From Escherichia phage vB_EcoS_AHS24: a stretch of 46,440 nt of DNA. The DNA lies in the sequence record NC_024784.1; one strand, written 5' to 3'. Positions within the stretch are counted from its first letter, which is position 1. Every line of letters begins with the position of its first letter. Of the stretch, positions 45,573 to 45,934 are shown piece by piece. The notes under the pieces were generated by a model. That model had not been told where the DNA came from. It saw only the letters and a list, made by a program, of their open reading frames with translations, and searched no databases. The translations under genes and the position numbers were made by a program.

Positions 45573-45629
45573 GCTATCAATCTGGTTCCTGGCTGGCATG
45601 TTGACGTGGATTTATTTCGTCGTCATGGC

Positions 45630-45658
45630 TTGACGAAAATGTTAAAAGTGGTTAGTAT
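45630..45658 (+). promoter_or_regulatory. sigma70-like promoter candidate upstream of tRNA
   Basis: TTGACG - 17 bp - TAGTAT about 200 nt upstream of tRNA-Arg. Confidence 0.35.
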
Positions 45659-45858
45659 TAACCACGTAGACGGCAATGACCGTAACGCTCATCGCGGAGA
45701 TGCAAGCCGATAGCCGGGCTGGATAAAGATACGAGGCAAATAAAACCGCAGTTAGACATTGAGTGCTTAGCATAGCGCACGCCTTAATGCAGTAAGTCGG
45801 ACTTGACCTTCCGAGGATTGTGAAACCTCCCCGCATTCGGTAAGCGGGACTCATTCTA

Positions 45859-45934
45859 GTTCTGCTGGCGTAACAGGATAACGCAGAGACCTCCTAAGTC
45901 TCAGTTGCTGGTTCGAGTCCAGCGCAGAACGCCA
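45859..45934 (+). tRNA. tRNA-Arg (anticodon CCT)
   Basis: 76-nt cloverleaf folded by hand: acceptor GTTCTGC/GCAGAAC, D-stem GCGT/ACGC, anticodon stem GAGAC/GTCTC with loop CTCCTAA, T-arm GCTGG-TTCGAGT-CCAGC, discriminator G, encoded CCA. Confidence 0.9.

Follow-up and report, generated by a model that had tools for sequence, protein, structure and literature searches.

The locus described here lies near the end of a 46,440-nucleotide (nt) stretch of DNA from Escherichia phage vB_EcoS_AHS24 (NC_024784.1), to which, at its full length, we refer as the window. It comprises, on the + strand, a predicted sigma70-type promoter (45630..45658), a putatively transcribed leader of about 195 nt (~45664-45858) and a tRNA-Arg(CCU) gene (45859..45934). 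The leader is located ~0.5-0.7 kilobases (kb) upstream of terS, whose start codon (ATG) opens the window. Over 901 bases around the tRNA locus, the sequence agrees with Escherichia phages AHP24 and AHP42 (Drexlerviridae, Rogunavirinae, Rogunavirus) at 100% identity and with other Rogunavirus genomes at 94-99%; the window is 279 base pairs (bp) shorter than the AHP24 record (KF771236.1), with equal coordinates in the start region and an offset of 279 nt at the tRNA. An initial annotation of positions 45573-45934 had regarded the ~285 nt upstream of the tRNA as its long and structured leader, possibly a processed one or a small RNA. We consider it very probable that the locus joins a real tRNA to an RNA element that is autonomous, conserved and structured, the leader, whose anatomy, distribution and possible role are discussed below.

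The leader is made up of a near-invariant core, a variable spacer and four hairpins, here named hp1, hp2, hpA and hpB, as seen in an alignment of 11 Rogunavirinae phages. Immediately after the -10 hexamer there is a start-site box (TAACCACGTAGAC, 45659..45671), found in all lineages at this position as TAAYCNCGTAG(A/C)C, which opens the core (45659..45740); hp1, hp2 and a predicted AGCC/GGCT hairpin (45705-45720) complete it. The core has a mean pairwise identity of 96.9%, with 71 of 82 columns invariant, versus 94.2% for the tRNA and 93.9% for the micro-ORF, a short open reading frame (ORF) located upstream of the leader; the AGCC/GGCT hairpin is beyond a covariation test because it is invariant. 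The first hairpin, hp1 (ACGG/CCGT, 45670..45683), has 4 bp here and is followed by an invariant AACG (45684-45687) and by hp2 (CATC/GATG, 45689..45703), which has the pentaloop GCGGA (45694-45698) and an outer pair that is T.C in this genome and G-C in relatives. The spacer (45741..45808) is rich in indels (43% mean identity, 5/68 invariant columns), with large indels or replacements between genera. It is followed by hpA (GAGG/CCTC, loop ATTGTGAAA, 45813..45829), which always directly abuts hpB (CCCGC/GCGGG, loop ATTCGGTAA, 45830..45848). The loop of hpB has the consensus A...CGUAA; its GTAA end is invariant, and the preceding base is C everywhere except in the Rogunavirus rows, where it is G. 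All parts of the element (start-site box, hp1-AACG-hp2, abutting hpA, and hpB with its loop) are thus present in this genome between 45659 and 45848. A 10-nt tail (ACTCATTCTA, 45849..45858) separates hpB from the tRNA, up to the presumed RNase P site at 45858/45859, and its motif ACTCATTC(T/A)A is common to Rogunavirinae and many Braunvirinae. In leaders of the TR1 (locus L139, ~880-934), IMM-001, AN_ECEAS and ACG-M12 (locus L136, ~738-770) types we also observed a third hairpin between hpB and the tRNA, e.g., TAGCG-CAA-TCGCTA flanked by TTTAA/TTAAA.

The structure of the leader is supported by covariation. Because MAFFT alignments across lineages placed the helix arms out of register, we used an anchored, hand-built and loop-trimmed alignment of 20 distinct leaders (64 ungapped columns), whose anchors were three invariant motifs: AACG downstream of hp1, RCGGA in the loop of hp2, and CGTAA, with which the loop of hpB ends. 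Standard pairs occupy 96.7% of the cells of the four-helix structure, versus 28-43% when the partner is slid by 1-3 columns, and 15 of the 18 helix pairs have changed on both sides. Such changes were observed in hp1 (GCCAC/GTGGC, CCATC/GATGG, CCGTC/GACGG, CTAGC/GCTAG and GCGC/GCGC; 4/5 pairs), in hp2, whose arms, found from the loop motif RCGGA alone, are all paired yet unrelated (CATC/GATG, GCGC/GCGC and CTAA/TTAG; 4/4 pairs), in hpA (GAGC/GCTC, AGGC/GCCT, GTCG/CGAC, GCTG/CAGC and GTTG/CAAC; 4/4 pairs) and in hpB (GCCGG/CCGGC, CCCGG/CCGGG, GCTGG/CCAGC and GCCGC/GCGGC; 3/5 pairs, with 99% of the cells paired). The variants GAGC/GCTC of hpA and GCCGG/CCGGC of hpB already occur in the alignment of 11 Rogunavirinae. 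The covariation score was 0.734, versus 0.170 in shuffled alignments, and none of 500 shuffles reached it. Since some registers had been chosen by best pairing, a control for selection bias was added, in which shuffled 5' flanks gave paired fractions of 0.59-0.71 (maximum 0.78), versus the 0.90-0.99 observed. RNAalifold, applied unaided to the natural alignment, recovered hp1 (4/5 pairs compensatory) and the core of hp2. These data argue for the leader being a real structured RNA or, conceivably, a structured single-stranded DNA.

Of the three hairpins listed in the initial annotation, the two that correspond to hpA and hpB (GAGG/CCTC at 45813-45829 and CCCGC/GCGGG at 45830-45848) covary, and GTGGTTA/TAACCAC (45648-45665) is not kept: it shares bases with the -10 hexamer, most of it precedes the likely transcription start, and the sequence at this place reads TCGATTA in EB49 and is unrelated in Braunvirinae. 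The Rfam search that had been suggested for 45573..45858 retrieved no family of Rfam 15, even at E <= 10, and the leaders of EC3a, TH27, AugustePiccard and TR1 returned nothing but tRNAs at E <= 1. The idea that hpA and hpB form a degenerate tRNA half (given their D-arm/anticodon-arm geometry and the ACAGG loop in Braunvirinae) was rejected, as the Rfam tRNA model gave no match at E <= 10 and no acceptor-like pairing was seen.

We identified the leader in 29 Rogunavirinae, 93 Braunvirinae-type and ~13 tRNA-less TH27-type records, plus T1. It takes the same place in these relatives: in sense orientation, after a -35/-10 pair, 3' of a gp63/rtp15-like cluster and 5' of an rtp17-like gene and terS. 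In Braunvirinae, reached via the micro-ORF (Rtp, EC3a, Piccard phages and others), the layout is the same, with the promoter TTGCAT-17-TAATAT, the box TAACCACGTAGAC, the hairpins and then a tRNA-Arg(UCU), replaced by a tRNA-Arg(CCU) in TR1, IMM-001 and AN_ECEAS. In T1 (Tunavirinae) the leader lies between ST58 and ST57; what comes after it is not a tRNA but a Shine-Dalgarno site with an ORF, and the element is composed of TTGACC-18-TAGTAT, TAATCCCGTAGAC, GCGC/GCGC followed by AACG, GTGAGA/TCTCAC, TTGC/GCAA, and GCCGC/GCGGC with the loop AGACCCGTAA. In TH27 (Nouzillyvirus) a complete leader is followed at once by a Shine-Dalgarno site and an rtp17-like homologue, and no tRNA was found in the first 50 kb of the 52.3-kb record. 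The TH27 leader (locus L142, 718-877) is chimeric, its first 41 nt matching the Braunvirinae type and its nt 61-145 the Sf12/EB49 (Rogunavirinae) type; this recombinant sequence indicates an exchange of modules inside the element and, since its BLAST matches to both groups are significant, the two types of 5' domain can be treated as one element.

Since T1 and TH27 carry the leader without a tRNA, the element appears to be autonomous and the tRNAs (Arg-CCU, Arg-UCU, Trp and Val) appear to be inserts, the element thus being presumably older than the insertion. The view of the initial annotation that the upstream region is the tRNA's own leader is hence not supported: T1 and TH27-like phages have the same module and no tRNA, and other phages have it with UCU, Trp or Val. 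The insertion point, between the tail of hpB and the next Shine-Dalgarno site, is a hotspot: in Sd1 (locus L004, 1293-1447) a tRNA-Trp has been inserted between hpB and the tRNA-Arg, and in EB49 (locus L009, 954-1107) a tRNA-Val(AAC) follows the tRNA-Arg. We also observed, directly after the tRNA-Arg of EC3a (locus L123, 1267-1365), an unannotated 99-nt tRNA-like element (Rfam tRNA, 41.3 bits; not called by ARAGORN), with an acceptor CGTCGCG/CGCGACG, a canonical T-arm and a long insertion, and, at the matching position in Opt-79 (locus L010, 1043-1135), a 'tRNA-???' reported by ARAGORN.

Outside these phages, the E. coli genome collection showed no similarity or complementarity to the leader at BLAST sensitivity, so that the leader does not seem to be host-derived or an obvious mimic. 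A scan of IMG/VR with an invariant 15-mer retrieved 109 loci, which after BLAST filtering were only copies of GenBank phages already found; a search for related loci with the upstream protein gave six loci, one of them new (L131), and a scan of metagenomes with the start-site box gave three matches, one real but incomplete (L132) and two by chance. The element thus seems to be rare in the IMG/VR and metagenome collections searched.

The promoter is composed of a -35 hexamer TTGACG (45630-45635), a 17-nt spacer and a -10 hexamer TAGTAT (45653-45658), with 9/12 matches in a pattern scan. Each lineage has a -35/-10 pair at the corresponding place, with hexamers that differ (TTGCAT-17-TAATAT in Braunvirinae, TTGACA-17-TATCTT with a TG extension, and TTGACC-18-TAGTAT in T1), and the hexamers are kept within Rogunavirinae; one GenBank record labels the site just 'promoter'. 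The prediction is backed by this conserved position and spacing across lineages, not by the pattern score. From the usual distance of 6-8 nt to the -10 hexamer, transcription is predicted to start at ~45664-45666.

The tRNA-Arg(CCU) is a bona fide but ordinary phage tRNA, already annotated (GenBank records of AHP24, AHP42 and others) and published, the 2014 genome paper reporting 'one arginyl-tRNA' (PMC4070988). ARAGORN finds a single tRNA in the window, tRNA-Arg(CCT) at 45859-45934 on the + strand (76 nt), and Rfam (RF00005) accepts the cloverleaf with 58.8 bits (gathering score 29; E = 6.7e-12) in a full-length match (model positions 1-71), in agreement with the initial annotation. The 7-bp acceptor stem is formed by GTTCTGC and GCAGAAC, followed by G and an encoded CCA (45931-45934), which had also been noted, the sequence ending in ...GCAGAAC-G-CCA at 45934. 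The anticodon loop of 7 nt (CTCCTAA in GAGAC-CTCCTAA-GTCTC; ARAGORN anticodon at position 35) has U33, CCU at 34-36 and a purine at 37. Of the identity elements for arginyl-tRNA synthetase (A20 and C35), the tRNA carries C35, and an A occurs in the D-loop (AACAGGATA) close to position 20, where the numbering is uncertain; charging with arginine is a prediction. The CCU and UCU tRNA-Arg genes at this locus are 77% identical (60/78 positions; window 45859-45934, locus L123 1183-1260 and locus L139 935-1010), and on this ground are homologous genes with a switched anticodon; the anticodon type crosses subfamily lines, TR1, IMM-001 and AN_ECEAS being Braunvirinae with the CCU type.

Codon usage is in line with the suggestion that this tRNA serves AGG codons. 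AGG is the commonest arginine codon in the long ORFs of the window (25.1% of Arg codons, 12.6 per 1000) and reaches 30.1% (15.0 per 1000) in the + strand structural operon; for the genes annotated in AHP24 the corresponding shares are 24.2% overall and 30.5% among structural genes. In E. coli, AGG is used about 1-2 times per 1000 codons according to standard codon tables, so that the phage demand is roughly ten times that of E. coli. In Msk, which carries a tRNA-Arg(UCU), AGA (24.2%) exceeds AGG (16.2%) among Arg codons, and TH27, which has no tRNA, shows the lowest AGA + AGG share of the genomes compared; this comparison has one genome per tRNA class and is thus only suggestive. In the two genomes compared, the genome-wide AGG/AGA preference matches the anticodon carried, and codon supplementation is the best-supported role for the tRNA, as judged from these codon counts. 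We regard as unlikely that the tRNA instead replaces a host tRNA-Arg lost to host shut-off or to an anticodon-nuclease defence. Host tRNAs do decay in T4 infection, with compensation by phage tRNAs having been proposed (PMC9697503 and work cited there), and the tRNA-less TH27 keeps AGG at 18% of its Arg codons, so that heavy AGG use does not strictly need a phage tRNA; against this reading, the codon preference tracks the anticodon (CCU with AGG > AGA, UCU with AGA > AGG).

Upstream of the promoter, we noticed an unannotated ORF of 22 codons (the micro-ORF, 45565..45633, + strand), recognized by its comparative conservation and encoding the hydrophobic 22-amino-acid (aa) peptide MTELSIWFLAGMLTWIYFVVMA. 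The start codon of the micro-ORF shares bases with the stop codon of the gene before it (ATGACTGA), and in the 11-phage alignment conservation sets in exactly at this ATG (45565), also where the preceding gene differs. Rogunavirinae and Braunvirinae preserve the frame and the length (21-22 aa), 8 of the 12 variable columns in Rogunavirinae are third codon positions (variation being mostly synonymous), and tblastn homologues with 52-64% identity occur across Drexlerviridae, one of them annotated as 'putative membrane protein'. The peptide had no PHROG match and only a sub-threshold Pfam match, DUF6341. We predict that the micro-ORF is translationally coupled to the upstream gene and encodes a single-helix-like membrane peptide, a further small gene overlooked by annotation pipelines. 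Since 45573-45633 (61 nt) is the 3' part of this conserved frame, about a fifth of the ~285 nt described as non-coding is coding, the remainder being promoter and leader. In three Braunvirinae (loci L122, 966-1193; L124; L125, 966-1202) an extra ORF of ~75 aa, rich in Cys/His (...HGCKKHHY...VCKKCMH...), is located between the micro-ORF and the leader promoter, and the promoter-plus-leader module is separable from the micro-ORF because this ORF divides them.

Downstream of the tRNA there are two small ORFs on the + strand. The AHP24_77 homologue (rtp16-like, phrog_16862, 45966..46163) is an optional member of the unit with a PHROG match without assigned function; it is missing in most Rogunavirus relatives, which explains the 75% coverage of their BLAST matches. 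The AHP24_78 homologue (rtp17-like / T1 gp56-like, 49 aa with a CxxC motif, phrog_2919, 46192..46341) is, in the relatives inspected, the usual gene 3' of the leader, and in T1 it is the second ORF after it. PHROG and Pfam searches of the neighbouring proteins retrieved only families without assigned function. A strong predicted intrinsic terminator, GCCCTC-CTTGT-GAGGGC followed by T7 (46370..46393, + strand), closes the unit, and an extended -10 (TGGTACAAT, 46406..46414, + strand) lies between it and terS (window position 1 on the circular map). Neither of the two is annotated in the AHP24 GenBank record; terminators are annotated at the equivalent place in EC3a and T1. In the structural operon (window 1-21000, + strand) we identified nine strong intrinsic terminators (at 532, 2654, 6314, 8308, 8649, 10934, 11633, 15417 and 17530), with 30 terminator-like sites versus 15.6 +/- 3.9 expected, and only two strong promoter matches (503-530 and 10941-10969).

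We propose that the host RNA polymerase would read the locus as a short transcription unit just upstream of the terminase genes. The promoter would fire at ~45664-45666, and the leader of ~195 nt, the tRNA and the two small ORFs would be co-transcribed as far as the terminator at 46370-46393. RNase P cleaves tRNA precursors at the 5' end of the tRNA, as is general in tRNA biology, and a cut at 45858/45859 would part the leader from the tRNA. The tRNA would be cargo, placed in a well-expressed and untranslated slot, and would decode AGG for the AGG-rich late genes. For the leader itself we tentatively suggest, from sequence comparisons, an RNA that may act on its own transcription unit during transcription and is not a tRNA-specific leader. 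It would keep the RNA polymerase or a long untranslated transcript going, either by protection against premature termination or decay or by read-through towards the terminase/structural operon. A lasting covalent link between leader and mRNA is probably not needed, because an RNase P cut at the inserted tRNA would sever the leader, and for this reason action during transcription and action in trans both fit. A role on its own transcript is favoured because the leader is kept as a plain 5' untranslated region (UTR) in T1 and TH27, and read-through would be an attractive function because of the nine strong terminators and only two strong promoter matches of the structural operon. Taken whole, this explanation (one transcription unit, an autonomous module, a tRNA as cargo and a leader acting on its own transcript) falls, in our judgement, slightly below an even chance of being correct.

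Several observations weigh against this explanation or narrow its basis. Promoter-like sites with 9/12 matches occur at chance level in 44500-46440 (5 versus 4.6 expected), so that of the promoter claimed in the initial annotation the presence and the conserved position stand and the pattern itself carries no weight. Similarly, the stretch called structured shows covarying helices and no excess of folding: the folding energy of the 286 nt, compared with shuffled sequence, gives z = -0.35 (z = -0.69 for the other strand; -1.1 to +0.7 for sub-domains), and the claim of structure rests on covariation and not on thermodynamics, which would neither support nor refute it. Moreover, all Rogunavirinae lack the innermost pair of hp1, which leaves 4 bp, and the helix is weaker in e4/1c; the helix alignment is hand-built with trimmed loops, and the leaders in it are related by descent. 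When trained on the 5' domains of 12 non-Rogunavirinae, Braunvirinae-type leaders, a covariance model (R1) gave no match at the present leader at E <= 10, and the homology of the two types of 5' domain rests on synteny, shared motifs and the TH27 bridge. The codon comparison, as noted above, has a single genome for each tRNA class. Literature searches retrieved no transcript map or report of a non-coding RNA for T1-like phages, the promoter, start, co-transcription and processing all being inferred. Finally, the computed results fit action in cis or in trans, and insertion of a tRNA with RNase P cleavage would sever the leader if attachment to the mRNA were required.

The strongest competitor, still rather unlikely in our estimate, is a stable small RNA acting in trans: the ~195-nt leader, freed by RNase P and with a 3' end protected by hpA and hpB, would pair with host or phage mRNAs or sequester a protein. 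The near-invariant 82-nt core suggests sequence-specific recognition, the 3' end of such an RNA would carry two tandem hairpins, tRNAs inserted repeatedly just behind the tail would give a clean RNase P end, and RNAC and RNAD of T4 are real and abundant RNAs whose function is not known (PMC9697503). On the other hand, T1 and TH27 have neither a tRNA nor an obvious processing site after hpB, the element being there the 5' UTR of the next ORF, and the lack of similarity or complementarity in E. coli genomes, at the sensitivity of BLAST, also speaks against it. A narrower form of our own proposal, in which the leader would be a factor-independent RNA antiterminator, put-like in logic and unrelated in sequence, is one that we doubt more strongly than the trans-acting RNA. 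The nascent hp1-AACG-hp2 and hpA-hpB RNA would then bind the host RNA polymerase that makes it and confer resistance to terminators, so that transcription from one promoter would cross the pre-terS terminator and at least nine operon terminators, and tRNA genes would be inserted at this slot because it is heavily transcribed and never translated.

Recognition of the element as double-stranded DNA, be it by the neighbouring terminase at a pac site, as an origin of replication or as an array of operators, would make the hairpins irrelevant and seems to us very unlikely. A position ~0.5-0.7 kb upstream of terS in headful-packaged genomes, for which circular permutation was reported (PMC4070988), and the very strong conservation of the core would suit such a role; yet compensatory changes are not expected from double-stranded recognition, and they are present in 15/18 pairs, and the element is always found in sense orientation directly 3' of a promoter. 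We give hardly any credence to the view that the stretch is, as in the processed leader of the initial annotation, just the long but ordinary 5' leader of a precursor tRNA, with hairpins that are incidental and without a separate function, to which the position between promoter and tRNA and a folding energy no better than that of shuffled sequence would conform: it is largely refuted by the retention of the element in tRNA-less phages, and the core is more conserved than the tRNA and compensatory changes have preserved four helices from one subfamily to another. It is just as hard to believe that the conserved core encodes another small protein, although an ATG at 45676 opens a 16-codon frame, ORFs of 35 and 70 aa exist, and relatives have annotated ORFs here (Rogue1_0013, OPT79_80/81). 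These annotated ORFs fall within the variable spacer, and relatives do not have them in common; the core is almost invariant without a third-position pattern, and indels break the frames. We rejected the small ORFs within the leader on similar grounds: the ATG at 45676 is ATT in e4/1c, the ORFs are not shared and there is no codon-position pattern.

What is new at this locus is the leader, a covarying, family-wide RNA element of T1, Rtp, Rogue1 and ~135 sequenced relatives that neither Rfam nor the genome annotations contain and that no paper we found describes. T1-like phages use the host RNA polymerase and, to our knowledge, no antiterminator is known for them; the leader would be an easily mutated candidate for the control of transcription into their terminator-rich late operon and, if it were an antiterminator, it would represent the missing late-gene switch of these virulent phages. 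The recurrent insertion of tRNAs at one slot bears on how phages acquire and swap tRNAs, and the slot could serve as a well-expressed engineering site in Drexlerviridae, a family with wide use in phage therapy and biocontrol.

The tRNA and the leader can both be compared with known systems. Single tRNA-Arg genes for an AGR codon that is rare in the host and heavily used by the phage, most of all in late structural genes, exist in T4 and T5-like coliphages, and the tRNA-Arg(CCU) is an ordinary member of this group; the oddity here is local, the homologues at one locus being CCU in some relatives and UCU in others. Short pentaloop hairpins in an untranslated leader, such as hp2 with its GCGGA loop, recall lambda nut and the rrn boxA/boxB elements, but the boxA-like signal of nut/rrn antitermination does not occur in the unit: TGCTCTTTAACAA has no match in 45600-46440 at <= 3 mismatches, and the whole window has 24 versus 21.2 expected. 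RNAC and RNAD of T4 ('species 1 and 2') are co-transcribed with tRNAs and processed by RNase P. Like the leader, they are phage non-coding RNAs of 100-200 nt beside tRNA genes, with a function that is not known (PMC9697503). However, no similarity to them in sequence or structure and no Rfam match was detected, and the leader is promoter-proximal, upstream of the tRNA, and persists without it; the existence of tRNA-less carriers argues against an obligatory tRNA link of the RNAC/RNAD type. The put RNAs of HK022 confer terminator resistance on RNA polymerase in cis, without protein factors and in dependence on the beta-prime zinc-binding domain, and their stems are far larger than the 4-5 bp of hp1 and hp2. 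The likeness to put is one of layout only, that is, a promoter-proximal nascent RNA with two adjacent stem-loops upstream of terminator-bearing operons, as there is no sequence similarity and no Rfam match, and T1-like phages are virulent and not lambdoid. The leader belongs to neither T4 RNAC/RNAD nor HK022 put, its nearest analogues; it recalls the former in its size and tRNA neighbourhood and the latter in its layout.

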